Part shown: positions 24,133 through 60,003 of the stretch, in pieces
Position numbering within the stretch: position 1 is the first letter of the stretch
Layout: the number at the start of each line of letters is the position of its first letter
Assembly: GCA_948434855.1 (NCBI GenBank)
Contig: CAOJFR010000002.1
Location: 21,195 to 85,194, forward strand
Source: an uncultured Clostridia bacterium
GTDB taxonomy: Bacteria; Bacillota; Clostridia; Christensenellales; UBA1242
DNA: 64,000 nt
Direction: 5' to 3'
Program-made: the position numbers and the translations under genes
The notes under the pieces: model-generated
The model's database searches: none
The model's input: the letters and a program-made list of their open reading frames with translations, nothing else
Told to the model about the DNA's origin: nothing

Positions 24133-25740
24133 ATGGCAGAAAGAACAAAAGAGACTGATTCAAAAAAGAAATCGTCAAGAAAAACCAGTATAGATGGCAA
24201 AATACTGCCAAACAACTATGAAGCCGAGCAAGCGGTGCTTGGCTGTGCACTCATTGATTCAGATGCTGCCCTTGCGGTTATAGGAAAGCTTGAAGAGGCA
24301 GACTTTTATAATGCCACACATAGATACATTTTTTCTGCAATCAGAAGTTTGCAAAGCAAGGCCAAGCCAATAGATTTCATCACGGTATCAGGCGAGCTTG
24401 AAAATTTAGGCAAAATCAATGATGTTGGTGGAATGGGTTATGTGTCAAGCTTAACAAGCATAGTTCCATCATCAGCCAGCTACAATCATTACATAGATCT
24501 CGTAAAAAAAGTTTCCATACTAAGGCAGCTCATTGCAATCAGTGGTGATATTATAGATGAAGCCTATAAAAGTGGTTCAGATGAATCGCTTATTGGCATT
24601 GCTGAAAAAAAGATATATGAAATTGCAGAAAAGGGACAACAAGGCAGTCTAGAAAAAATAGATTTGTCAGTTCAAAAGGTTATAGATAACTTTGAATTAA
24701 TCCATAAAGAAGGCGGAACAATCCATGGCATAAAAACAGGGTTCCATCAAATAGATAAGGCAACCAATGGCTTGCAAAAATCCGACCTTATAATCTTAGC
24801 CGCAAGACCAGGTGTAGGAAAAACATCGCTTGCAATGAACATTGTTTCCAATGCAGCACTAAATTCAAAGGCAAAATGTGCAGTATTTTCGCTAGAAATG
24901 GGAAGAGAGCAACTTGCAAGAAGAATGCTCTGCTCAGTTGCAAATGTTTCAATGGCAAAGGGAATGCGTGGCGATCTTCATGAAGAAGATTGGGTAAAAT
25001 TGCATAAAGCAAAAAAGCAGTTGTCAGAAGCAGATATATTTATTGATGACAATGCTCTAAACACTCCTTCGCAGGTGCTTTCAAAGTGTAGAAAGCTCAA
25101 AAGAGAGCGTGGGCTAGACCTTGTTGTAATTGACTATCTTGGACTCATGAAGTCCGATGAAAAAACTGACAATCGTCAAAATGAGGTTGCAAACATTTCA
25201 AGACAGCTCAAAATTCTTGCAAAAGAGATTAATGTTCCAGTAATCACGCTTTGCCAATTAAATCGTTCAGTAGAGCAAAGAGATGACGGCAAGCCAGGAA
25301 GGCCAGTGCTTTCAGACCTCAGAGATTCTGGTTCAATAGAGCAAGATGCAGATATGGTATGGTTCATTCATAGAGACATGACTAAAAATGAGCTAGATAA
25401 AGATCCAAATCAAAACTATACTGCAGAAATCATTATTGCAAAATTCAGAAACGGACAACCGGGCAGTGTATTCCTTGGCTGGGATGGTTCAAGAACCAGT
25501 TTTGTCAATCTTGAAAAAGATGCAAACGAGCAAAGTTTGGTTAATATATACGAGCAAAATCAGGAGAGCAAAAGAGAAGCCCGCAAGGCAAGGTCAGCAG
25601 AAGATATTGCTTCAGCCTTAAATAATATAGTTAACGAGATTGATGCCGATGGCTTAGGAATGGTGCCTCCTCCAGAAGAAGAAAATCCAGTTCCAGATTT
25701 CAGCAACATAAGCGTTCCAGAAGACGATGAATTGTTTTAA
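24133..25740 (+). CDS. dnaB: Replicative DNA helicase (DnaB family) with ~75-aa acidic C-terminal extension
   Basis: 535-aa ORF; LPNNYEAEQAVLG N-terminus, Walker A ARPGVGKTS, DYLGLM, SGSIEQDAD motifs. Confidence 0.93.
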   Translation: MAERTKETDSKKKSSRKTSIDGKILPNNYEAEQAVLGCALIDSDAALAVIGKLEEADFYNATHRYIFSAIRSLQSKAKPIDFITVSGELENLGKINDVGGMGYVSSLTSIVPSSASYNHYIDLVKKVSILRQLIAISGDIIDEAYKSGSDESLIGIAEKKIYEIAEKGQQGSLEKIDLSVQKVIDNFELIHKEGGTIHGIKTGFHQIDKATNGLQKSDLIILAARPGVGKTSLAMNIVSNAALNSKAKCAVFSLEMGREQLARRMLCSVANVSMAKGMRGDLHEEDWVKLHKAKKQLSEADIFIDDNALNTPSQVLSKCRKLKRERGLDLVVIDYLGLMKSDEKTDNRQNEVANISRQLKILAKEINVPVITLCQLNRSVEQRDDGKPGRPVLSDLRDSGSIEQDADMVWFIHRDMTKNELDKDPNQNYTAEIIIAKFRNGQPGSVFLGWDGSRTSFVNLEKDANEQSLVNIYEQNQESKREARKARSAEDIASALNNIVNEIDADGLGMVPPPEEENPVPDFSNISVPEDDELF

Positions 25741-25742
25741 AG

Positions 25743-25771
25743 ATAAAGGAGAATGTTTCTCCTTTATTTTG
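25743..25771 (+). terminator. Rho-independent terminator after dnaB
   Basis: TAAAGGAGA-ATGTT-TCTCCTTTA then TTTT. Confidence 0.75.
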
Positions 25772-25835
25772 CATCAAAAAAATTCAAATGTTGACAAGAA
25801 AAAATAAAATTGATATACTAAACGAGAGGTAGATT

Positions 25836-27443
25836 ATGTCAAAAAGATTTGCAACAATATTTTTCATAACTGTCGCAACCATAATGATATTAGCAGTGGT
25901 ATTTTTTATGGTGCTATTTTTAGCCCCAGGTGTAACAGTTTTTGGAATAAGATATATAGGTCAAGATCTTCATAAATATGAGTCAGGAAAAATAGAGCTA
26001 AACAAAGAATATGGCGGAGATTTCTCAGCTCTCACCCTAAACACTCATGAAGTTCCTGTCAATGTATATTTCACAGAGAGCATGTCATATTATGTTGAAT
26101 ATTATTGCAACTTCAACGGAATCACAAATTCAAAAATATCTGATCCATCAATGAAGATAGAAAGAAAGGGAACAGAAATAATCATCACCACTTCAGAATA
26201 TCATAAAGTAATATACGAAACATCATCTTCAGAAAGATATATAAATTTATATATACCGCTAGTTTCAGTTTCAGGTGCCGGCGTAGACTATACAACAGCG
26301 CTAGAAATCAATTCAAACAAATCACCAATCACATTCACCAAAGATGACAGAACAGATGAAAGAACACCAACCTTTAACACAATAAGTTTAACAACAAATG
26401 GAAAGGTAAATTATAACACACCAATCATGACCAACAATTTCAGATTAAGCACATCTTCATCAATAAAAGTAAATGAAAATTGGTCAAATTTTATCTATTC
26501 AACCAACTATAGTTTAAAGAGCACAAGCGGAAAAATTGAGCTAAATTGTCCAGTTTCAGGAAATCTAGATTTAGAGACAAAAAATGGTTCAATAAGCTTA
26601 GTTTCATGCAAAAACCTATATGCAAAAAGCTCACACGGAAGCATAAAGTCAGCAGGCGAAAATCCAGTAAAAATTTCAGGTATTGTAGATATAGAAACCA
26701 AGTCAGGCAGTGTCACACTAGGTGATATTAATGGAATTGGCGAAAATAAAATCAAAACCAGTTCAGGCAAGGTTGTGCTTGGAAAGATTAAAGATGGAAC
26801 AATCATAACTCAAAGAGGCAGTGTAACCATTAAGTCAGTTTCAAATGCAACAATAGACACAAATGTAGGAAATGTAATAGTTGAAGAGTCGCTAGGATCT
26901 ATTGTAGCAAAAACCAAAAGAGGAAACATAACTCTTGGCGGTGAAAACTTAACAATGAACAACGCAACAGTGTTTTCAAGGCTAGGCAAAGTAAATTTAA
27001 AATCAGCCGATGGAACAACAAGTGTTGAAACAATTTCGTCTAATGTAAATATAAAAAATAGAACAAGTGAAAATTTCACAATAAAGTGTGGCGGAAAGTT
27101 AAATGCAGAGGGCTTAACAGGAAAGGTAAATATTTTTGCAGAAAAAGATTCCACAGTAAGTTTCAGTAGAATTTCAGATGTTTCGGTTCTAGATTTTGGT
27201 GCAAGTGCCAAAGAGGTCAGTGTATATGCTTTGGGAAACACCAAAGATGACATTGGCTACAGAGTATATGGCTCAAGCGTAATAATAAAAGAGTATAGAA
27301 ATAATGCCTACATAACCTATGACGGCACAAATGGAAGCGGAAGAGATAAATATGAATATAACGTTAACTGGAGCACATATTTAAAACTCACAAGCAAAGA
27401 TAACAAGGCAAAAGTAAATTTATTTTTCAAGGCGCCAAATTAA
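25836..27443 (+). CDS. Membrane-anchored beta-strand-repeat protein (DUF4097-like putative adhesin fold)
   Basis: 535-aa ORF; N-terminal TM helix; repeated G(S/N/K)(I/V)x(L/V/I) units (GSISL, GSVTL, GKVVL, GSVTI, GNVIV, GNITL, GKVNL). Confidence 0.6.
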   Translation: MSKRFATIFFITVATIMILAVVFFMVLFLAPGVTVFGIRYIGQDLHKYESGKIELNKEYGGDFSALTLNTHEVPVNVYFTESMSYYVEYYCNFNGITNSKISDPSMKIERKGTEIIITTSEYHKVIYETSSSERYINLYIPLVSVSGAGVDYTTALEINSNKSPITFTKDDRTDERTPTFNTISLTTNGKVNYNTPIMTNNFRLSTSSSIKVNENWSNFIYSTNYSLKSTSGKIELNCPVSGNLDLETKNGSISLVSCKNLYAKSSHGSIKSAGENPVKISGIVDIETKSGSVTLGDINGIGENKIKTSSGKVVLGKIKDGTIITQRGSVTIKSVSNATIDTNVGNVIVEESLGSIVAKTKRGNITLGGENLTMNNATVFSRLGKVNLKSADGTTSVETISSNVNIKNRTSENFTIKCGGKLNAEGLTGKVNIFAEKDSTVSFSRISDVSVLDFGASAKEVSVYALGNTKDDIGYRVYGSSVIIKEYRNNAYITYDGTNGSGRDKYEYNVNWSTYLKLTSKDNKAKVNLFFKAPN

Positions 27444-47967: not shown

Positions 47968-50900
47968 ATGAGAAAAAAAGTTGCAATTAAAAGAAGTTCA
48001 AATAATTCTGAAATGACTAAAAAAAAGAAAATATTTTTAGTTTCTGTTGCAGTGGTTTTGCTTATTGCGGTAACACTTTCAGTGGTGCTTCCAATAGCAC
48101 TAAAAAAACCAAAAGATGTACCATTTAAAATTCCGGCACTTGCTCTTCCAATTGAAGAGCAATATGCGCTGCACAAATTTAAGTTAAACGAGCTGGACAA
48201 CACGGTAACAACCATTCGTGCAGACACAATGAATGTTACAAAAAGGGGCGTGAAAAGAGAGCTTGGCACAAAGGTTTTTGATGATAGCTATAAATTAACC
48301 TATGGCACAGATAGCATTTCAATTGACTTTATGGGTCATTATCCAAGCCCTAGTCATGGCTTTAGTGGAAACTCTGCTGACTATTTAGAAGAAGCAAAAA
48401 AAATGTTTTCATCAGATTCAGATGCTATTGCACTTCAAAAATATAGTTTTTTCTATAAATATATGCTTATGTCACAAGGCTATAATGAAGTGTTTGATTT
48501 GCAAAAATTATCACAAAGCTTGGTTGATGGTTCAAAAGAAGAGTATGCAAAAAATCTTTATAAACACCCAGCAGCAGATGCTCAATATGGCGAAGTTTTG
48601 GGAGAAAATAATGCCGTTGTTAAAGAGATAACTCTAGACACAATATATCGTTCGCTTCATGCAACAGGACTATATATGCCAGCTGGCGAAGTTGTTACTG
48701 TTAAGGTGGAAGGTTTAAAAGAGGGCGAACATATCTCTATGGTCATTGGCAGACAAAACTCTTTGGCTTGGAGGGGTGAAGCTGCTTCTCAGGGGACAAA
48801 CACAACAGGCAAAGATAACTTTTTCTTTAATGCCGACATTATTACCGCTAAGGGCGGATTTAGCGATGCAAATAAATTTAGTTATTCAGAAACAGGTGAT
48901 GTTATTGGACACAAATTTATTCAAAGTCAGTGGGGCAGACAAAATGGCAGAATGCCATGGCTAACAGCAGAGTTCACATTTAATCAAAATGGAACTTATT
49001 ATATTGGCACACCTTATGGTGGAATAATGCACATTGGCATGGGCAACACTTATTCAAAAGTAAAAACAACCATAAGTGGTGCAGTTGAAACACCTCACTA
49101 TATTTTGGGCGTAACAACTCCAGATTATTTTGAAACATATCTTAAGGATGCACCTGGCGTTGTTGGTGTTATGGATACAGAAAATGGTCAGCTTATTGGA
49201 TTAACAGGCGAAGCAGGAACAGAACTTTATATGCGTCAAATAAAAAAAGAAGATGTTCAAAAGCTTGCAATGCTTTGGCATTCATTCTTTGCAGTAAACG
49301 AGTCGTTTACTGGCGGAACATATAACAGAGGCAACATTGTTATGTTTGACTGGCACGTTCCGGCTGGTGCAGCGGTTGCACTTGGTGGATATACCTATGC
49401 TTGTCCAACTAGCTGGTTTAATAATGCAATGAACTATAGAGGATTGCTAACAGCTGGTCAGTGGGGAATTTTGCATGAAGTTGGTCACAGCCATGGTGCA
49501 GCATATGGTTCAATTTGGGGCTTTGGTACCGCAAGAGAAGGCGAAGTTAGAAACAACGCTCTTACACTTTTAAGTTACATTTTGTTCTGCGATGTTGGAA
49601 CAACAATCAGAATGGGTGGTGGAGCAGAACATGGTGGTTATGCAAATCCATATTCAACACTTTCTGAAACGCTAAAATTTCCAAGTCAAGTTCACAATGA
49701 CTTTGATGATGGCACCTATGGCTATTTTCAGTGTTTGGGGATGTATTCAAACATAATGCACTCATTTGGTGCAGAAAAATATTATGAGCTTTTATACACC
49801 TATAAAAATAATCCAAACTTTGTTACAGTAAACACTGCGGGACTCAATGAAACTGATAGAAATCGCAAACTTGCTCTTGCAAAACGTGCAGACTTTGCCT
49901 ATAGATGCTCAACCGTTTTTGGCATGGATTTTAGAAAATATTTTAACACTTTCTATGCCGCAAATATTGACAATAGCATGTTCACAAAAGAGCAACTTAG
50001 TGAAATGAACAAGCTTCCAAAATATGAGCCAATTTCATGTTTTTATGCTGGTGGAATAGACGGCGTTAAAACTTCTGGCGATTATGTTGTTGCATATGGC
50101 GATGATATTGTTTTTGACTTATTGGAAAAAACAATAAGTTCACTTGACAAAGATGGTAAAAAGGGTTTTGAGATTTTATCAGGGGCAAAGGCAACTCATG
50201 GAAAAATTAAAGAACTAGAAAATGGCAAAATTGTCTATTCATTTAATCCGAAATATTTTGGAAATTGTGATGAAATCAAGTTTAAAGTTAAATTAAGTGA
50301 TGGTGTTGTTCATGAGTTTACAATTTATTTAAGAATAAATTATAACAGCACAAAACTTTCAACTTATTCTGAAATAGAGCCAATTTCAGGAAATTATTGG
50401 GATGCTGTTGATGAAATTATTAATACAAAAACACCAACAATTTCTTCAAATCCATATTCTTATATACCAACCTATAAAACAGCAAAAGGCTGGGAAATTA
50501 AGGTTTCAGAGTTTTATTGGAAAGCTCCACGCACAGGCGAAGTAAATTTCAGTTTCAAACTTGACGATGGTTTACGATTCTATTTTGGAGAAAATTTTAA
50601 CTCTTTAGAAGATCAAGGTTATTATAGCAGTTATTCAAGCAGTTGGGTTAAACATAGTAAAGCCTTTAAGGTTGAGGCAGGAAAATATTATGCTATAAAG
50701 CTTGTTAATGTTAATAAGGGTGGAAATGGATCTGCAGCAATTGGCTATAACTATTCAGGCGAAAACACTCAAAACATTGCAATTGCAGATGTCTTTAATC
50801 CAAATTATCCTCATGGAGAATATCACGAAGATTATAATCCTAAGAAAACAAACATAGAAACTTTTGTTTTTGAGCCATCATATTTGGTATCAAAAAAAGA

Positions 50901-52530
50901 CGGAATTTCTGTTTCAACCACAGGCACCGACAAGGGTAGGTGGCAAGTTTTAAAGGCATCAAAAGTTAGTGATACGGAAAATAATAAAGATTATATTAAT
51001 GGCAATAGAATAACAACCATAACAAGGACAGAGGTTGTAAGAGATGAAAACGGAAACCCAGTTATGCGACCTGACGGAACTTTTGAAACTCAAAACTTTA
51101 CGCTTGAAGTTGACCAATGGTCATATCTTGTTGATGGCGACTTATCAAACTATTTGCATACTGTTTATGGAAAATATCCTGCAGAGAGTTTTGCAAGTGA
51201 AGCCGATCCATTTGAGTTTATTATTGACACAGGCAGAGAACAGTCATTTAACTACTTTAAGGTTATAACCAGAACTGGTGCACTTGGAGTTTCAAAAATA
51301 ACAAAATATGAGCTTCAAATTTCAAGTGATGGAAACACTTATACCACCATTTCAAAGGGTGATGAACTTGCTTATAAAAACAATATTGCAACCTTGAAAT
51401 TTGACACAGTAACAGGAAGATATTTCAGACTTCTTGTTAAAGATACCACAGGAAATGCTGGAAAATTTGTTGTTATTGCAGAGCTTGATGCGGGCATAGA
51501 GTCAAAAACACAAAGACTTATTCCATCAACCAGCTCACTTCTATTCACAACAAAACACTGGAAAAATTCTTCAGATATTTCAAGTGAACAAAGCGGGTTT
51601 ATGATTGCTGAAAGAAAGCGTCAAAAAATGGTTGTTAGATTTAATGGTGAAAACCTTGCACTTTATGCAGCCGTTGGCAAAGATTTTGGAATGGCTGACA
51701 TAAAGCTTGACGGAAAATATTATACAACAATAGACTTTAGCAGCGACATTGCAGAGTCAAGAAAATTAATGCTTAACTTAGAAAATTTAGAAGATGAAAC
51801 ACACACATTAGAAATTATAACAAAATCTTCAGGGAGGGTAATGATATATATGCTCGGAATCAATTACACATCAGAGCTTGTTAATGCTCCAAACATTTAT
51901 TTAGAGCGAGGACTTACAATTTCACTTATTGTGTTTGTATTATTATTTGCAGCGCTTCTTGCGTTTGTGCTTTGCTTGTTGTTTATTCCAAAGTTCAGAA
52001 AGCTTATGGGAGGCAACAGAGCAATTGCGGCACTTGATGTTCACATGGAAAAACGCAGTGAAAAAATAAAGGCAAAGCGTGCTGAAAAGAAAAGACAAAA
52101 AGAAGAACAGGCTACTATTGAAAAATATAAGTCAGCTGATGTTGGTGTTAAACAAAAACCAATATCAACTTCTCAATCAAAAGTTGCAATAAAAAAACAA
52201 GTGCCAAACAAACCTGAAGTTAAGACAAAACCAGAAGCAGTTAAAAAGTCAGCAGAGAAGCCAGCAGAAAAATCTCAAGTAAAACCTGTTAATAAACCAG
52301 CAGAAAAACCAAAAAATAATTCTGCAGAAAATTCTAAGGCAAAACCAGTAGCGAGCAAAGCACTTCCAAAAGAGCCAGCAAAACAGACAAAAAATAACAG
52401 TGTAAATGCAGCAAAGCCAGAGGCAAAAAAGACAACAACCACTGCAAAACCTGCTAGCAAGCCAGCTCAAACAAAGACAAGTGCTGCTTCAAAAAGTGCA
52501 AAAACAGCAGCAAAAAATACTAAAAAATAG
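47968..52530 (+). CDS. Giant surface protein: M60-like zinc metallopeptidase with PA14-like and F5/8-type-C-like domains, TM helices at both ends and a Lys/Pro/Ala-rich tail
   Basis: 1520 aa; HEVGH (49474-49488) plus downstream Glu (REGEVRNN); N-terminal TM; discoidin-like YELQISSDGNTYTTI region; C-terminal TM, then a 179-aa basic tail. Confidence 0.8.
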   Translation: MRKKVAIKRSSNNSEMTKKKKIFLVSVAVVLLIAVTLSVVLPIALKKPKDVPFKIPALALPIEEQYALHKFKLNELDNTVTTIRADTMNVTKRGVKRELGTKVFDDSYKLTYGTDSISIDFMGHYPSPSHGFSGNSADYLEEAKKMFSSDSDAIALQKYSFFYKYMLMSQGYNEVFDLQKLSQSLVDGSKEEYAKNLYKHPAADAQYGEVLGENNAVVKEITLDTIYRSLHATGLYMPAGEVVTVKVEGLKEGEHISMVIGRQNSLAWRGEAASQGTNTTGKDNFFFNADIITAKGGFSDANKFSYSETGDVIGHKFIQSQWGRQNGRMPWLTAEFTFNQNGTYYIGTPYGGIMHIGMGNTYSKVKTTISGAVETPHYILGVTTPDYFETYLKDAPGVVGVMDTENGQLIGLTGEAGTELYMRQIKKEDVQKLAMLWHSFFAVNESFTGGTYNRGNIVMFDWHVPAGAAVALGGYTYACPTSWFNNAMNYRGLLTAGQWGILHEVGHSHGAAYGSIWGFGTAREGEVRNNALTLLSYILFCDVGTTIRMGGGAEHGGYANPYSTLSETLKFPSQVHNDFDDGTYGYFQCLGMYSNIMHSFGAEKYYELLYTYKNNPNFVTVNTAGLNETDRNRKLALAKRADFAYRCSTVFGMDFRKYFNTFYAANIDNSMFTKEQLSEMNKLPKYEPISCFYAGGIDGVKTSGDYVVAYGDDIVFDLLEKTISSLDKDGKKGFEILSGAKATHGKIKELENGKIVYSFNPKYFGNCDEIKFKVKLSDGVVHEFTIYLRINYNSTKLSTYSEIEPISGNYWDAVDEIINTKTPTISSNPYSYIPTYKTAKGWEIKVSEFYWKAPRTGEVNFSFKLDDGLRFYFGENFNSLEDQGYYSSYSSSWVKHSKAFKVEAGKYYAIKLVNVNKGGNGSAAIGYNYSGENTQNIAIADVFNPNYPHGEYHEDYNPKKTNIETFVFEPSYLVSKKDGISVSTTGTDKGRWQVLKASKVSDTENNKDYINGNRITTITRTEVVRDENGNPVMRPDGTFETQNFTLEVDQWSYLVDGDLSNYLHTVYGKYPAESFASEADPFEFIIDTGREQSFNYFKVITRTGALGVSKITKYELQISSDGNTYTTISKGDELAYKNNIATLKFDTVTGRYFRLLVKDTTGNAGKFVVIAELDAGIESKTQRLIPSTSSLLFTTKHWKNSSDISSEQSGFMIAERKRQKMVVRFNGENLALYAAVGKDFGMADIKLDGKYYTTIDFSSDIAESRKLMLNLENLEDETHTLEIITKSSGRVMIYMLGINYTSELVNAPNIYLERGLTISLIVFVLLFAALLAFVLCLLFIPKFRKLMGGNRAIAALDVHMEKRSEKIKAKRAEKKRQKEEQATIEKYKSADVGVKQKPISTSQSKVAIKKQVPNKPEVKTKPEAVKKSAEKPAEKSQVKPVNKPAEKPKNNSAENSKAKPVASKALPKEPAKQTKNNSVNAAKPEAKKTTTTAKPASKPAQTKTSAASKSAKTAAKNTKK

Positions 52531-54618: not shown

Positions 54619-55116
54619 TTAAACTAACTCTTCAAAAGCATAAAAAATTTTATGTTTATCAATATAAGAGGTGTTTTCAAGCTTTTTAAATCCATGCTTA
54701 ATGAATAGGTTAATTGATGGAATATTGTTCTTAAAAATTATTACGCGTAGAATTTCAAAATTATTTTTCTTGGCAAAATCATAAACAAATTCTAAAGCTT
54801 TTTTGTCATAACCATGTCTTTGGAACTCTGGGGCAATTGCCAATCTGCTAATATACAAAAAATTTTTATTTTTAGACCAATTGATAACTTGATAATCAGG
54901 ATCATCAAGAGTTGTAAGAACAAAGCATCCAACTAGTCTATTATCATCTTTAATAAAAAACATTTCGCCGTTTTTTATGTCACTTTTTAACTCACAAAGA
55001 GGGTAAGAACCATTCTAAAAAATTCTAACAATATTATTATTTGGGTCGTTTAAAACTTTTTTATATAACTTTTTAACATTAGGATAATCCTTAGCATTTG
55101 CTTTTGTAATCTCCAT
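54619..55116 (-). pseudogene. GNAT N-acetyltransferase interrupted by one in-frame TAG
   Basis: The frame is continuous from ATG 55116 (MEITKANAKDYPNV...) to stop 54619, except for TAG at 55017-55015 (IVRIF*NGSYPL); the distal part has a GNAT core (RLAIAPEFQRHGYDKKALEF). Confidence 0.75.
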
Positions 55117-55348
55117 AAAAAACCTCAAATTTTAATAAGAACATTATATAACAAAATTAAAATGATGTATACAAAAATTTAAAAGTTCATAATTAAAAGC
55201 CAACTGAAATTATGAATGGCACGATTGAACTTAACTAAATATTAGAAATACATAACTGCTAAAAAGATAAATGAGAACTATTTAGTAAATTTTATAAAAT
55301 ATCATTTTATAAAGTTTTAAAAGTTAATATGTCTTTGTATGGTTTTAT

Positions 55349-55560
55349 AATGGTGGCGGTTCGAAATGCAAATTCGAACCTGTCCATAAAAATTTGAACC
55401 CCAACATTATCCATCAGCATTCTCAACAATATGGATCGAATACTCAATTCGAACAAGGGCGTAGGGAACCACAATTCGAACCTTCAAAGAAATTTTCCAA
55501 CCACATAGAATTTATAGACTACATTCCAACCCACGAGGTAATAACATACCGCCACCTATT
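55349..55560. other. Structured non-coding block (~210 nt) closed by a 9+3-bp helix; strand unknown
   Basis: GGTGGCGGT (55352-55360) pairs with ACCGCCACC (55548-55556), plus 3 more pairs past a 1-nt bulge; 8-bp hairpin GGTTCGAA-ATGCAAA-TTCGAACC; AATTCGAAC occurs three times (55371, 55446, 55473). Confidence 0.45.
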
Positions 55561-55612
55561 CGCTTATGGTTTTTATGTGGAGTAAAAATTTTAAAATATT
55601 ACTAATATTAAG

Positions 55613-55641
55613 TTGACAAGTATATTAAACATGATTATTAT
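55613..55641 (+). promoter_or_regulatory. Near-consensus sigma-A promoter of a short non-coding transcript
   Basis: TTGACA, 17-nt spacer, TATTAT. Confidence 0.65.
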
Positions 55642-55647
55642 TAAAGT

Positions 55648-55781
55648 ATGAAGTTAGCACTCAACTGATTTGTTTGCTAAAATAAACAATAAAGAGGTCA
55701 ATATATCGGGATAATTAAGTTTATATAGATTTGTATAAATAAAAAGAACAACACCGAGGTCGCCTCGGTGTTGTTTGTTTT
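55648..55781 (+). ncRNA. Candidate small RNA (~130 nt) delimited by promoter and a 13-bp terminator
   Basis: Terminator AACAACACCGAGG-TCG-CCTCGGTGTTGTT then TGTTTT (55747-55781); the only ORF is a 6-codon one (MKLALN). Confidence 0.5.
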
Positions 55782-55835
55782 AACCTAAAAATGAATTCTT
55801 TAGGCCTGAGAAACTTTGAGAATTCAAATGGGAGG

Positions 55836-55895
55836 TTGATAATGAAATGATCATTATATGCTAATATGTTAACACATTTGTCATTTCATTGTCAA
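55836..55895. repeat. 15-bp inverted repeat (14/15 match) spaced by 30 nt, upstream of the 305-aa gene
   Basis: TTGATAATGAAATGA (55836-55850) versus TCATTTCATTGTCAA (55881-55895); the single mismatch would be a G-U pair in plus-strand RNA. Confidence 0.8.
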
Positions 55896-56090
55896 CAATA
55901 TTTCTACAATTTTTATTAGCATAATTTGCAACTCTAATATAAATTGTTAAATATTTGAGGCAATGATTTTTTGTTTTTAGGTTTACTTCAAATTTTATTA
56001 AAGGAGAAGTAATATGAAAAAAGAGAATACAGAATAACAGAATAAAAACTACAAAAAGCTACAATTAAAATAAAAGTTAAGGAGACAAAA

Positions 56091-57008
56091 ATGGAAAAAG
56101 TAAAAGATTTACTAAATGTGCTAAAAAAATATGGAAACTATTCTTTATATTCAGCAAAGACAAATGTAAAGAACAAAAAAATTTATAAATACGATCAAGA
56201 GGTTAATAAAAAATTAGTTCTTGATAGGAAACTAGAAGTATTGGAACAGTTAAGCGAGTGTCCTATTTATGAATATGATGTTTATAGTATAGATAAAGAT
56301 ATTATTCAACAAATTAGCGTTGATAAAATAAATTGGTTTGACATTCAGAAATCAATTAACGAGTTAGACCCACAAAACTTAAATGAAATAAATCCTACTA
56401 TTATAAATAGATTAACTGATATGGACATATTGTTATTGGATTTAGAAGATGGCAGACAGGCATATATCATTAACAAACACATAACTATTGGTTCCGCTTT
56501 TAGAAATAAAACAATGTTTTCTAAAAAAACGTTACTTGCGGAAGACAATATTTATGCATTTAACGATTATCCAGATGTAGTAATTTTGGATAACAATTGC
56601 TATATCTTTAACGAAAATAAGTTTAATTCGATGTTTAATTTTAGAGAAAAAATAGATAAAAAGGTAGAAGGGTCAAAAGAGATAATAACGTCATGGCAAT
56701 TTATACAAGATGGCGAGATGTTTTATCAATATTGTTTAAAAAATTACAATACAAAAAGAGCAATAATAAAAGTCCTTGACAAAGATGGCGTTGATCTATT
56801 GACAACTTCTTCGCCTTCAACAATAAAGAAAAAATTGTTAAGCCATGATGAATTGGTTGATAAGTTAACTTTTGATCCGAATACAAGCAAACTATTAGTT
56901 AATGATGAAATTTGTGATTTAATATTAAAGATATTAACTAATAAGATAGGTCAGGACTTATTTACGGATAAGTTATTTGGTATGGGAGATGGCGATGAAG
57001 TTAATTAA
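56091..57008 (+). CDS. Hypothetical soluble protein (305 aa); candidate sensor/partner of a membrane defence pair (KwaB/DUF4868-like?)
   Basis: ATG after RBS AAGGAGA; no TM segments; its end overlaps the next gene by 14 nt. The family assignment is only a size, context and pattern impression. Confidence 0.8.
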   Translation: MEKVKDLLNVLKKYGNYSLYSAKTNVKNKKIYKYDQEVNKKLVLDRKLEVLEQLSECPIYEYDVYSIDKDIIQQISVDKINWFDIQKSINELDPQNLNEINPTIINRLTDMDILLLDLEDGRQAYIINKHITIGSAFRNKTMFSKKTLLAEDNIYAFNDYPDVVILDNNCYIFNENKFNSMFNFREKIDKKVEGSKEIITSWQFIQDGEMFYQYCLKNYNTKRAIIKVLDKDGVDLLTTSSPSTIKKKLLSHDELVDKLTFDPNTSKLLVNDEICDLILKILTNKIGQDLFTDKLFGMGDGDEVN

Positions 57009-57582
57009 GAAAATATTGTTATACTTAACAGCATTCAATCCTATGGTATTTTTGCTATTGTTATCGTCAATAATTCAAATTCAATTTTCTGACGAATTAT
57101 CTTGGAATAAGCAGAATATAATAGTGATTTCATCTTTTTTAATTTTTCTAATTATAACATTTATAATAGCAGTGATTTTCGTAAAAAAACCTTTAAGAAA
57201 CGATTCTTGCAAAGTGGTGTTAATAGAAGTTAAAAATCTAACAGATAGTTATTTCTTAGGTTATTTTGCTTTATTTGTCATGTTAGACTTGTCTTTTGAT
57301 TTAATGAGCTTGGAGAGTCTAATAATTCCGGCCATCTTGATTATAATAATTGGTGTAGTGTATATATCAAATGATTTATACTATATAAACCCTTTATTTA
57401 ATCTTTTTGGTTATAAATTTTTTGATATTAAATATCAAAAAAACAATGTAAATAAACAATATTCGGGAAGAATTTTTAGCAAAAATAACTTAGAAAAATA
57501 TATAGATGAAGAAATAGAAATGGATTATAGCATATATAATTTTAGCAAGCAAAGGAATGAGCTAAATAAAATTAAAAAATAA
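56995..57582 (+). CDS. Four-TM membrane protein (195 aa); candidate effector/anchor (KwaA-like?)
   Basis: ATG 56995 after GGGAGA. Four hydrophobic helices (LLYLTAFNPMVFLLLLSSII, IIVISSFLIFLIITFIIAVIFV, YFLGYFALFVMLDLSF, LIIPAILIIIIGVVYI), then a ~70-aa soluble tail. Confidence 0.8.
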   Translation: MKLIKKILLYLTAFNPMVFLLLLSSIIQIQFSDELSWNKQNIIVISSFLIFLIITFIIAVIFVKKPLRNDSCKVVLIEVKNLTDSYFLGYFALFVMLDLSFDLMSLESLIIPAILIIIIGVVYISNDLYYINPLFNLFGYKFFDIKYQKNNVNKQYSGRIFSKNNLEKYIDEEIEMDYSIYNFSKQRNELNKIKK

Positions 57583-57673: not shown

Positions 57674-58573
57674 ATGAGGTTTACGTTAATGAGATTTTTG
57701 ACAGCTAGCGAAATTGCTAAAAAGTGGAATATAAGTGAAAGGTCTGTTCGTAATTATTGTCGGCAAGGAAGGGTAAAAGGCGCTGAACTTAAAGGCAAAA
57801 CATGGATAATTCCTGAGGATGCTGAAAAACCAGAAAGGGTGGAACGTAAAGAGTTTAGTGATAATCCGCTTCTTAATAAATTGAAAGAAGAAAAAGATAT
57901 GGGGCTCAAAGGTGGAATATTTGAAAAAACAATTGTTGCTTTAACATATAACTCCAATCATATAGAAGGAAGCAAATTAACAGAAGACCAAACAAGAATG
58001 ATATATCAAGTACAAGAAATTTATACTGGTGATCAAACAATTTCAGCAAATGATATACTAGAAACGATAAATCATTTTAAATGTGTAGATTTTATAATAG
58101 ATACGGCACTATGTAATTTGAGTGAAAGTTATATAAAGCGTTTACATTTTGAGCTTAAATATGGAACTTTTCATAGTCTTGCAATCAATGTTGGATTATA
58201 TAAAAATTTTCCAAATGAAGTTGGCGGAAATGAAACCTGTCCACCTGAAAAAGTTTCCGAAGAAATCAAAAAACTTTTAGATAACTATAATGCAAAACAG
58301 ACTAAAACTATTAATGACATAATTGAATTTCATAAAGAATTTGAAACAATCCATCCATTTCAAGATGGCAACGGAAGAGTAGGGCGGTTAATTATGTTTA
58401 AAGAATGTCTTGCCAACAATATAGTTCCATTCATAATAGAGGACGAATTTAAGCTCTACTACTATCGTGGCCTCAAAGAATGGAACACTGAGCGTGGCTA
58501 TCTAACTGATACTTGCCTCGCTGCCCAGGACAAATATAAAAAATGGCTAGAGTATTTTAAGATTAATTATTGA
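57674..58573 (+). CDS. Fic-family protein with N-terminal HTH and internal inhibitory-helix motif
   Basis: Fic motif HPFQDGNGRVGR (about 58352-58387); SNHIEG matches the (S/T)xxxE(G/N) inhibitory motif; N-terminal LTASEIAKKWNISERSVRNYCRQG HTH. Start is 57674 or 57689. Confidence 0.88.
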   Translation: MRFTLMRFLTASEIAKKWNISERSVRNYCRQGRVKGAELKGKTWIIPEDAEKPERVERKEFSDNPLLNKLKEEKDMGLKGGIFEKTIVALTYNSNHIEGSKLTEDQTRMIYQVQEIYTGDQTISANDILETINHFKCVDFIIDTALCNLSESYIKRLHFELKYGTFHSLAINVGLYKNFPNEVGGNETCPPEKVSEEIKKLLDNYNAKQTKTINDIIEFHKEFETIHPFQDGNGRVGRLIMFKECLANNIVPFIIEDEFKLYYYRGLKEWNTERGYLTDTCLAAQDKYKKWLEYFKINY

Positions 58574-58684: not shown

Positions 58685-58855
58685 ATGCATAATGAATTAT
58701 ATACAACAGAATATGATGTTGAGAAAATGTTTATAGAGGTTATTACTACAAATTGGTATAAATATAATAATTTATCAAGTTATGAAGAGCTTCTTGAAAA
58801 TTTTAGAAATAAGTTAAATCTTTTAAATAAAGATATCCTCAATGCAAAACCATAA
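58685..58855 (+). pseudogene. Truncated N-terminal fragment of a type I restriction enzyme R subunit (HsdR)-like gene
   Basis: 56 codons with RBS GGGAGA; TEYDVEKMFIEVITTNWYKYNNLSSYEELLENFRNKLNLLN resembles the HsdR N-terminal pattern; stops far short of a helicase core. Confidence 0.45.
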
Positions 58856-59051
58856 AGAAGAATTGAAACAATTTCGTAACGAAAATAAAGAAATGATAAG
58901 AAGATTAGAAACTATAAGAGATAAAGTATATTCGCATTTTGATTTAGATTATTATAAAGATTGCGATAAAATATCAATGCAATTTATTGAGAAATGTATT
59001 TACTTTGTGGCCGAAGTGTTAGGAATTTTAGATAAAATTTTATTTATATAA
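58842..59051 (+). pseudogene. Short C-terminal fragment with an Rx5H (HEPN-like) motif
   Basis: 69-codon ORF starting inside the end of the HsdR fragment in another frame; IRDKVYSHFD fits Rx4-6H; no RBS. Confidence 0.3.
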
Positions 59052-59052
59052 A

Positions 59053-59084
59053 AAAGATAGCTTAAACAAAGAGCTATCTTTTTA
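59053..59084 (+). terminator. Rho-independent terminator-like hairpin
   Basis: AAGATAGCT-TAAACAAAG-AGCTATCTT then TTT. Confidence 0.55.
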
Positions 59085-59145
59085 AAATTATTCCAAATCT
59101 ATTTGGTCTGAAGAAGTAGACACATTGTTCGTATTTGAAATAGGT

Positions 59146-59234
59146 TGGCGGAGAGAGCGGGATTCGAACCCGCGCTACATTGCTGTACTACACCCTTAGC
59201 AGGGGCGCCTCTTCGGCCTCTTGAGTATCTCTCC
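59146..59234 (-). tRNA. tRNA-Ser (anticodon GCU), CCA encoded
   Basis: Acceptor GGAGAGA/TCTCTCC, then G and CCA; anticodon loop CTGCTAA; long variable arm; T-arm GCGGG-TTCGAAT-CCCGC. Confidence 0.95.
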
Positions 59235-59421: not shown

Positions 59422-60003
59422 TTATTCATCAGTTTTTGCATTTTGATCTTCTTTTGATTTTTTAATATTTTCGCTATCACGAATTTCAAGAAGGTTATGT
59501 TTGATTAAAGGAATATTTTTTCTTATAATTATTTTTATAATTTCAAAAATAATGAAAAATATTGTGATGACAAGCGAAAGCACGGCATACAAAATTGCTG
59601 ACACATTTGTTGTTCCTGTGGTAACAAACGCACTAATTGCGGTGATTATTGAAAGCACAAAGTTAATAAGCTGAATTATATATTTCAAAAATTTAACAGC
59701 ACTTTTATAATTTTTAAGATGATATTTCATCTTGTTTTTGCTTGAAAGCCCAACAAAAAGAAGAATTATAAATATAACAGCATATGCAATAAGAAGGTAA
59801 ATTATAACCTTAGAAAGGAAAGTTTTTTCAGTTAGTTTATATGTAACAAAAAGTGTGTAGCAAGAATAAAGGGCAATAGAAAAAATATTCCAAAGCACAA
59901 ACAAAATTTTGGACTTTCTTGATGGTTCCAAAATTGTGTTTACGTGCTCAGGCGTTCTTGCAATATTAGACTCTTTTTGTTGCTTTTTGCCAAAAACTTT
60001 CAT
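59422..60003 (-). CDS. Hypothetical membrane protein (193 aa, ~4 TM)
   Basis: Long ORF with four hydrophobic segments; no clear RBS. Confidence 0.6.
   Translation of the reverse strand: MKVFGKKQQKESNIARTPEHVNTILEPSRKSKILFVLWNIFSIALYSCYTLFVTYKLTEKTFLSKVIIYLLIAYAVIFIILLFVGLSSKNKMKYHLKNYKSAVKFLKYIIQLINFVLSIITAISAFVTTGTTNVSAILYAVLSLVITIFFIIFEIIKIIIRKNIPLIKHNLLEIRDSENIKKSKEDQNAKTDE

Follow-up and report, generated by a model that had tools for sequence, protein, structure and literature searches.

A divergent Kiwa defence system with kwaB ahead of kwaA in an uncultured low-G+C bacterium

Organization of the locus

The window (the whole stretch of 64,000 nucleotides that was analysed) contains two adjacent genes on one strand, of which the first encodes a soluble protein (gene 1) and the second a membrane protein (gene 2); their positions, together with those of the associated signals and neighbours, are listed in Table 1. 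The genes overlap by 14 nt, the ATG of gene 2 at 56995 lying inside gene 1, whose TAA stop codon occupies 57006-57008. An earlier reading made from the letters alone (the sequence-only reading) had called both genes, their overlap and the GGGAGA RBS, and these calls stand at the same coordinates. The open reading frame of gene 2 opens at a TTG at 56977 and initiation at ATG 56995 yields the 195 aa protein; the latter is the likely start, since relatives have equivalent N-termini (MKLIKK / MKFLKK) and alignments to the PADLOC KwaA models begin at residue 1-2. That the genes overlap by 14 nt and that the RBS of the second lies inside the first suggest translational coupling, by which the two partners would be kept in proportion. 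The pairing of the two genes is kept in all relatives examined.

A single intrinsic terminator follows the pair, as had been proposed from the sequence. The terminator scan agrees with the folding, none of 200 shuffled sequences folds as well, and the hairpin has a run of Ts behind it; with T-runs present on both strands it could terminate in either direction. At the other end, a candidate sigma-70-type promoter sits between the terminator upstream of the pair and gene 1. This promoter call is tentative because such consensus matches are not more common here than in shuffled sequence.

Table 1. Features of the two-gene locus and its neighbourhood (positions in the window)
Feature	Position	Strand	Remarks
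Terminator upstream of the pair	55740-55782
Candidate sigma-70-type promoter, TTGAGA-16 nt-GATAAT	55816-55843	+	Consensus scan, 10/12 matches; tentative
RBS AAGGAG of kwaB	56079-56084	+	6 nt ahead of the kwaB ATG; sequence reading
kwaB (gene 1)	56091-57008	+	305 aa, soluble; N-terminal alpha/beta domain, C-terminal DUF4868/KwaB domain
RBS GGGAGA of kwaA	56984-56989	+	Within the 3′ end of kwaB, 5 nt ahead of ATG 56995; sequence reading
kwaA (gene 2)	56995-57582	+	195 aa, four transmembrane helices, 70-aa C-terminal tail
Intrinsic terminator hairpin common to kwaB and kwaA	57585-57622	.	-16.1 kcal/mol, z = -6.8; terminator scan agrees
HTH-Fic gene, intact	57674-58573		Pfam Fic 3.6e-17; PADLOC PDC-S04 1e-99; SoFic 2e-19
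tRNA-Ser(GCT)	59146-59234	-
HsdR-like short fragment	near the pair		REase_I N-terminus 1.6e-5, weak
HEPN-like short fragment	near the pair		HEPN_AbiU2 1.6e-3, weak, under the Pfam cut-off

Neither frame is broken or truncated in comparison with any homologue, the two genes are likewise whole in every relative, and the signature motifs are kept. The pair has a G+C content of 25.4% compared with 34.5% for the window, which fits horizontal acquisition, and it recurs in identical form on at least 13 assembled contigs from different samples. Relative to a 47%-identical sister clade, dN/dS is approximately 0.36 for kwaB and 0.26 for kwaA, which shows purifying selection on both genes, although dS is saturated in this comparison. 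The remainder of the window is clearly part of the chromosome, with fusA, tuf, rpoB, rpoC and dnaB. Two neighbouring 535-aa open reading frames elsewhere in the window (24133-27443) were considered as a duplication, which was rejected as they are unrelated to each other.

Identification of the two genes

Gene 2 encodes KwaA. It matches twelve PADLOC KwaA models, the best at 8.8e-19 and over the full length, and carries a precomputed assignment to Pfam PF28043 KwaA. Comparison with the solved E. coli KwaA (9mrg_A) by phmmer gives 3.2e-7, and a motif YYxNP..LFG[YF]K following TM4 is common to the two proteins. The NCBIfam KwaA model NF041622 scores 60.3 bits on gene 2, under the equivalog cut-off of 100. 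The four hydrophobic segments noted in the sequence-only reading are located at about residues 7-29, 41-63, 85-105 (the weakest) and 107-125, and are followed by a charged tail of 70 aa, also noted there; the placement of positive charges is consistent with an N-in, C-in topology.

Gene 1 encodes KwaB. It scores 37.2 bits against Pfam PF16162 KwaB (cut-off 26.3; E 3.8e-9), in a match that extends from residue 110 to residue 285 and covers profile positions 3-179 of 186, so that the DUF4868-like impression which the centre of the protein had given by eye is borne out. Matches to the PADLOC KwaB models are weak (E 2.6e-4 to 7.4e-4, none of them passing 1e-5), and the solved KwaB chains in the PDB were not reached from gene 1 by single-sequence or profile searches. 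The protein has a 19-residue hydropathy maximum of 0.93 and no hydrophobic segment, in keeping with its earlier description as soluble.

Homologues of gene 1 were collected by an exhaustive profile search of 1.84 billion protein representatives, which was needed for the distant relatives; word-indexed searches gave 3, 11 and 7 proteins. The exhaustive search recovered 77 representatives at E < 1e-3, about 300 aa in length and grading from near to distant, with six of them at E < 1e-30. Among the 56 that were aligned, 55 match Pfam KwaB, and only F178 and F182, both within a KFNSMF motif, are near-invariant. The AlphaFold2 model of gene 1 built on this 56-sequence alignment has a pLDDT of 92.1 and a pTM of 0.87, and was used instead of a model from a three-sequence alignment (pLDDT 60), which was discarded.

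Comparison of the model with the PDB by Foldseek, a check that had been proposed from the sequence, returned significant matches only to solved KwaB. The best six matches are all KwaB (9mrx_D, 9nyu_A and 9mtn, of which 9mrx is a KwaA-KwaB complex and 9nyu and 9mtn are KwaB crystals), with TM 0.71-0.74, E 5e-12 to 4e-9, a probability of 1.00 and 305-330 aligned columns, and the following match has E 0.7. These matches are full length, yet the sequence identity is just 12-13%. The two-domain fold of KwaB, a Rossmann-like alpha/beta domain and a helical DUF4868 domain, is present in the gene 1 model.

The pair is therefore identified as Kiwa by the profile matches to both KwaB and KwaA, by the sequence match of gene 2 to a solved KwaA, and by the fold match of gene 1 to KwaB alone. 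It is a distant but clear member of a known system and not a new one. Kiwa with the soluble gene first had been the leading idea of the sequence-only reading, and the profile, sequence and fold matches agree with it. The second possibility entertained there, an uncharacterised novel membrane-effector pair, was to be given up if the HMM comparison pointed to KwaA and KwaB; with PF16162 above its cut-off and the twelve KwaA models matched, it is ruled out.

Gene order and relatives

The order kwaA-then-kwaB is typical of the first described Kiwa systems, and the window pair does not have it. To our knowledge, detection tools do not use Kiwa gene order as a criterion. The expectation, carried over from the sequence-only reading, that described Kiwa operons run from kwaA to kwaB is not universally valid: the Kiwa system of S. 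thermophilus 90730 has a published kwaB,kwaA order, being listed in Table 3 of PMC11514479 as 'Kiwa (kwaB, kwaA)' with ORFs 0688 and 0689 at 673224-674776 on the forward strand. Gene order is not discussed in the searchable text of the large Kiwa study, which covers 9,797 operons (PMC11785009).

The kwaB-then-kwaA order is found in every relative of the lineage that was placed in context, which amounts to 12 distinct lineages with identities down to 21-24%. These include the window's own strain cluster, a sister clade that is 46-51% identical (P0002, P0003, P0005 and P0011), the increasingly distant P0012 (37%), P0015 (34%), P0016 (24%), P0017 (23%) and P0020 (21%), and the extra loci L026, L027, L028, L042 and L044. 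The junction between the two genes in these relatives is nearly always an overlap or a gap of 14 nt or less. A distant relative in Paenibacillus vini has kwaA first, followed by kwaB. A rough neighbour-joining tree of KwaB has two halves, one with every kwaB-first locus and the other with the Paenibacillus group. The inversion is therefore an old trait of the lineage and not a local rearrangement. The kwaB-first order is thus a lineage trait and gives no ground for exclusion from Kiwa.

The lineage is rare and patchy in its distribution. Alignment scans of the near clade gave four genome loci and three metagenome loci, and the nearest Kiwa relatives come from metagenome-assembled genomes of Clostridia and Bacillota. 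Four single-protein scans gave no viral-contig match, nor was there one in one metagenome scan; likewise, tblastn found no KwaB match on known plasmids and no KwaA match on known phages.

Genomic context

The pair lies between an acetyltransferase gene and tRNA-Ser(GCT), in what the sequence-only reading had described as a defence island with Fic, HsdR and HEPN remnants beside a tRNA gene. The Fic gene (by both Pfam and PADLOC) and the tRNA are well supported, and the HsdR and HEPN remnants amount to weak, short matches (Table 1). The Fic protein has an intact HPFQDGNGRVGR motif, an N-terminal SNHIEG motif of the inhibitory type and an N-terminal HTH_17 domain. The HsdR-like fragment was considered as a possible relic of the type I R-M frame that relatives have, and it shows no specific similarity to the HsdR at locus L039. 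About 1 kb upstream of kwaB is non-coding; a decayed fic gene was sought there by comparing all neighbour proteins with positions 54900-56100 by tblastn, and this candidate was rejected as only self-matches were obtained. The tRNA is the sole known RNA found by Rfam between 55000 and 59500. The island boundaries show no convincing direct repeats or att sites, no integrase was found there, and contigs sharing the flanking acetyltransferase include no empty site.

The homologue survey, which had also been suggested beforehand, shows that the neighbours of the relatives are overwhelmingly defence or mobility genes, with defence genes present at nearly every related locus. The defence genes include SoFic-type Fic (9.5e-44), AbiLi/AbiLii, type I hsdS/hsdM/hsdR, HNH/GmrSD, an EcoRI-type methylase and an SNF2-PLD protein with a BglII-like nuclease; the mobility genes are integrases and tyrosine and serine recombinases. 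In four distinct lineages the pair lies within a type I R-M locus, most clearly in the arrangement hsdM-rhuM-kwaB-kwaA-hsdS-DUF2513-hsdR, and otherwise with hsdS directly after kwaA or with the end of hsdR 25 nt ahead of kwaB. DNA comparison between contexts places the start of homology about 15 nt upstream of kwaB, and the minimal conserved unit is kwaB-kwaA. A larger block, fic-kwaB-kwaA-ypsA, measures 3.2 kb and occurs between two unrelated sets of flanking sequence with 97.8% identity.

Proposed mode of action and alternative explanations

The mode of action of Kiwa has been worked out in E. coli. According to PMC11785009, the E. coli KwaA tetramer is made of four-helix protomers, and KwaB dimers dock onto a beta-barrel built from their intracellular loop and C-terminus. 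KwaA and KwaB assemble into a fence-like membrane supercomplex, and neither gene is dispensable. The supercomplex is found at sites of infection and reacts when the membrane is disturbed. DNA is bound by KwaB via DUF4868 without being cleaved; replication of the phage fails, as does its late transcription.

We consider it highly likely, with a probability of about 0.88, that the pair is a Kiwa system of a divergent kwaB-first lineage that works as it does in E. coli. The window KwaA would then form a tetramer in the cytoplasmic membrane and hold soluble KwaB dimers by its intracellular loop and C-terminal tail, so that the whole complex is bound to the membrane. Where a phage attaches or its DNA enters, a disturbance of the membrane would be sensed via KwaA, upon which the DUF4868 domain of KwaB would bind the incoming DNA without cutting it, and this binding would stall the replication of the phage and its late transcription. 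The assembly of the complex, its trigger at the membrane, the binding of DNA and the replication block are steps that we infer for the window pair from the E. coli work (PMC11785009). The detail of the trigger may differ, as the host appears to be of the low-G+C Bacillota type, and activity in this strain is not guaranteed because the island also carries gene fragments.

Those fragments bear on a different explanation, by which the pair would have lost its function and be decaying inside an island that is itself degraded, retained only because it was acquired recently. The short HsdR-like and HEPN-like pieces, the non-coding kilobase upstream of kwaB and the lack of an integrase or att repeats at the island would all agree with decay. 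However, the frames of kwaB and kwaA are both intact and of full length compared with all homologues, they have good RBSs and a terminator, their signature motifs are kept with dN/dS well under 1, and the same pair is found unchanged across contigs of different samples, so that we regard a relic as very improbable. Less probable still is the notion that the genes encode a housekeeping membrane protein and its soluble partner with no role in phage defence, and that the likeness to Kiwa reflects a shared fold only. The very low sequence identity to characterised KwaB is what speaks for it, but both partners have significant profile matches and direct sequence matches, the genes are rare and unevenly distributed (77 representatives among 1.8 billion proteins), the G+C content is low compared with that of the host, and the flanks are variable and rich in defence and mobile-element genes.

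Two further proposals extend the unit beyond the two genes. In one, the Fic-family neighbour would be a third component of Kiwa in this sub-lineage, for example an effector or regulator that is released or controlled by the KwaA/KwaB sensor. Three Fic-family proteins that are mutually 21-31% identical flank the Kiwa genes of the near clade in three arrangements: the HTH-Fic gene is downstream of the pair in the window, a SoFic-type Fic gene ends 13-14 nt ahead of kwaB in the sister clade, and at locus L016 DNA homology holds from kwaB on, yet the gene swapped in upstream is again Fic-like (it is degenerate, with the catalytic histidine replaced by glutamine). The conservation of the fic-kwaB-kwaA-ypsA block between unrelated flanks points the same way. 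On the other hand, there are close relatives with no adjoining Fic gene (locus L004 has AbiL and L025 a recombinase), Fic is absent from all of the more distant kwaB-first loci (L017, L021, L023, L024, L028 and L039), and in the window the Fic gene is behind the pair's terminator and has a promoter-like site of its own. Moreover, SoFic and PDC-S04 have been entered in catalogues as defence genes, or candidates for them, that stand alone, defence genes cluster anyway, and two genes suffice for Kiwa in E. coli and S. thermophilus. A third component is accordingly unlikely.

The other proposal is that kwaB-first Kiwa, instead of being a self-contained system of two genes, is a sensor cassette poor in promoters, which inserts behind other defence genes and acts jointly with them. 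It derives from the start of homology so close to kwaB, from the three unrelated flanking Fic-family genes and from the four lineages found in type I R-M loci, and the candidate partners would be Fic-family AMPylases for the near clade and type I R-M operons for the wider lineage. If it were true, the Fic gene beside the pair would share in its function. The recurrent Fic neighbours and the placement inside type I R-M loci matter, though, only if they are functional links and not ordinary clustering in defence islands, and we think such a cassette improbable. A two-gene Kiwa system acting as in E. coli is the reading that we retain.

Understood as Kiwa, the pair represents a rare, very divergent branch of a defence system whose structure is already well characterised, and the branch shows gene order to be an unreliable criterion for recognizing Kiwa. 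Censuses that depend on the PADLOC KwaB models may under-count the branch, to judge from the E value of about 3e-4 obtained here. The branch also provides a Kiwa of the Gram-positive type with which to ask if the membrane-disturbance trigger of E. coli holds where there is no outer membrane.

Comparison with known systems

The Fic protein of the window resembles SoFic and PDC-S04, both single-gene Fic defences, in its Fic domain, and has the HTH_17 domain at its N-terminus in addition. For the pair itself there are three points of comparison. The Kiwa system of Paenibacillus vini (P0088; locus L019) is likewise a Bacillota KwaB/KwaA pair and is tightly coupled, with a 1-nt overlap, but it differs in having the canonical kwaA-then-kwaB order and in lying on the opposite side of the KwaB tree. 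The system of S. thermophilus 90730 has kwaB first, as in the window, and is similar in size (about 1.55 kb compared with 1.49 kb for the window pair); its host is Gram-positive and it is situated in a defence island. This streptococcal Kiwa gives a 4-5 log reduction against lactococcal phages (PMC11514479). It was called by PADLOC, whereas the window KwaB reaches only about 3e-4 on the PADLOC KwaB models.

The fullest comparison is with the E. coli Kiwa system (O55:H7 RM12579 / ECOR strains; 9mrg, 9mrx, 9nyu and 9mtn; PMC11785009). The window pair departs from it in its kwaB-kwaA order, in the 12-13% identity of its KwaB, which is beyond the reach of sequence profiles, and in its host, a low-G+C uncultured bacterium and not an enterobacterium. 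Nonetheless, the same two components are present in both, namely a four-helix membrane protein KwaA of about 195 aa whose C-terminal region is intracellular, and KwaB, which is soluble, about 310 aa long and made of two domains, and carries DUF4868. In the window, too, they are adjacent on one strand, and the resemblance extends to the fold of KwaB (TM 0.71-0.74) and to the sequence of KwaA, including the motif that follows TM4.

Genes surrounding the Kiwa pair

Directly 3′ of the hairpin terminator that follows kwaA lies an intact gene for a protein with HTH_17 and Fic domains. The protein matches the PADLOC candidate PDC-S04 (1e-99) and SoFic (2e-19), its active-site motif HPFQDGNGRVGR is intact (residue 227), and there is an inhibitory-type motif, SNHIEG, near the N-terminus (residue 94); the gene is probably a Fic-type defence gene in its own right. 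Two short overlapping ORFs further downstream look like gene fragments. A type I restriction subunit model is matched over only the N-terminal 50 residues of the 56-aa ORF (1.6e-5), this HsdR-like fragment having no specific similarity to the HsdR proteins of Kiwa-bearing type I loci, and the HEPN_AbiU2 match of the 69-aa ORF is sub-threshold (1.6e-3).

Locations of features in the window and in comparison loci
Feature	Locus	Coordinates	Strand
M60-like peptidase gene	window	47968-52530	+
Region 5′ of kwaB	window	55100-56090	
Near-consensus promoter	window	55613-55641	
Bidirectional terminator hairpin	window	55740-55782	
HTH_17 + Fic gene	window	57674-58573	+
Overlapping ORFs, fragment-like	window	58685-58855; 58842-59051	+
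Right-edge variable segment	window	59074-59234	
	L007	8410-9996	
Recombinase 3′ codons	window	59077-59154	
Membrane protein gene	window	59422-60003	-
Fic-family gene, kwaB, kwaA, convergent YpsA/SLOG-like gene	L001	5000-7956	
	L011, L012, L014	6998-9963	
	L016	4265-7185	
kwaB-first Kiwa in type I restriction-modification operons	L039	920-8554	
	L017	248-2847	
	L021	5001-7750	
	L028	2533-7393	

On its right, the island ends at an insertion point that varies between strains, because in one strain (L007), collinear with the window in other respects, a large serine recombinase gene (528 aa) sits at the site of the window's tRNA-Ser, and its final 26 codons are also present in the window. Between tRNA-Ser and the rubrerythrin gene there is a gene for a 193-aa multi-pass membrane protein, with no match in a Pfam search.

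The approximately 1 kb 5′ of kwaB contains no convincing gene and has no Rfam match. It does include a near-consensus promoter (TTGACA-17-TATTAT) and, about 100 nt past it, a very stable bidirectional terminator hairpin (-24.4 kcal/mol, z = -7.0), which together could mark either a short orphan transcript or the remaining end of a gene since lost. Further upstream is the gene for a 1520-aa M60-like peptidase, whose F5/8 type C domains, C-terminal membrane anchor and long Lys/Pro/Ala-rich tail suggest that it is a surface enzyme that degrades mucin and that the host is associated with the gut.

Contexts of related Kiwa pairs

Among sister-clade relatives, the end of a Fic-family gene is separated from kwaB by 13–25 nt, and kwaA is followed by a convergent YpsA/SLOG-like gene. 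The 3.2-kb block formed by these genes lies between unrelated flanks with 97.8% identity; the Fic of L016 is a different, degenerate protein with Gln in place of the catalytic His. Other kwaB-first pairs are recurrently found in type I restriction-modification operons, positioned between hsdM and hsdS or adjoining hsdR, a placement resembling that of other genes already known to be carried as cargo in type I loci.
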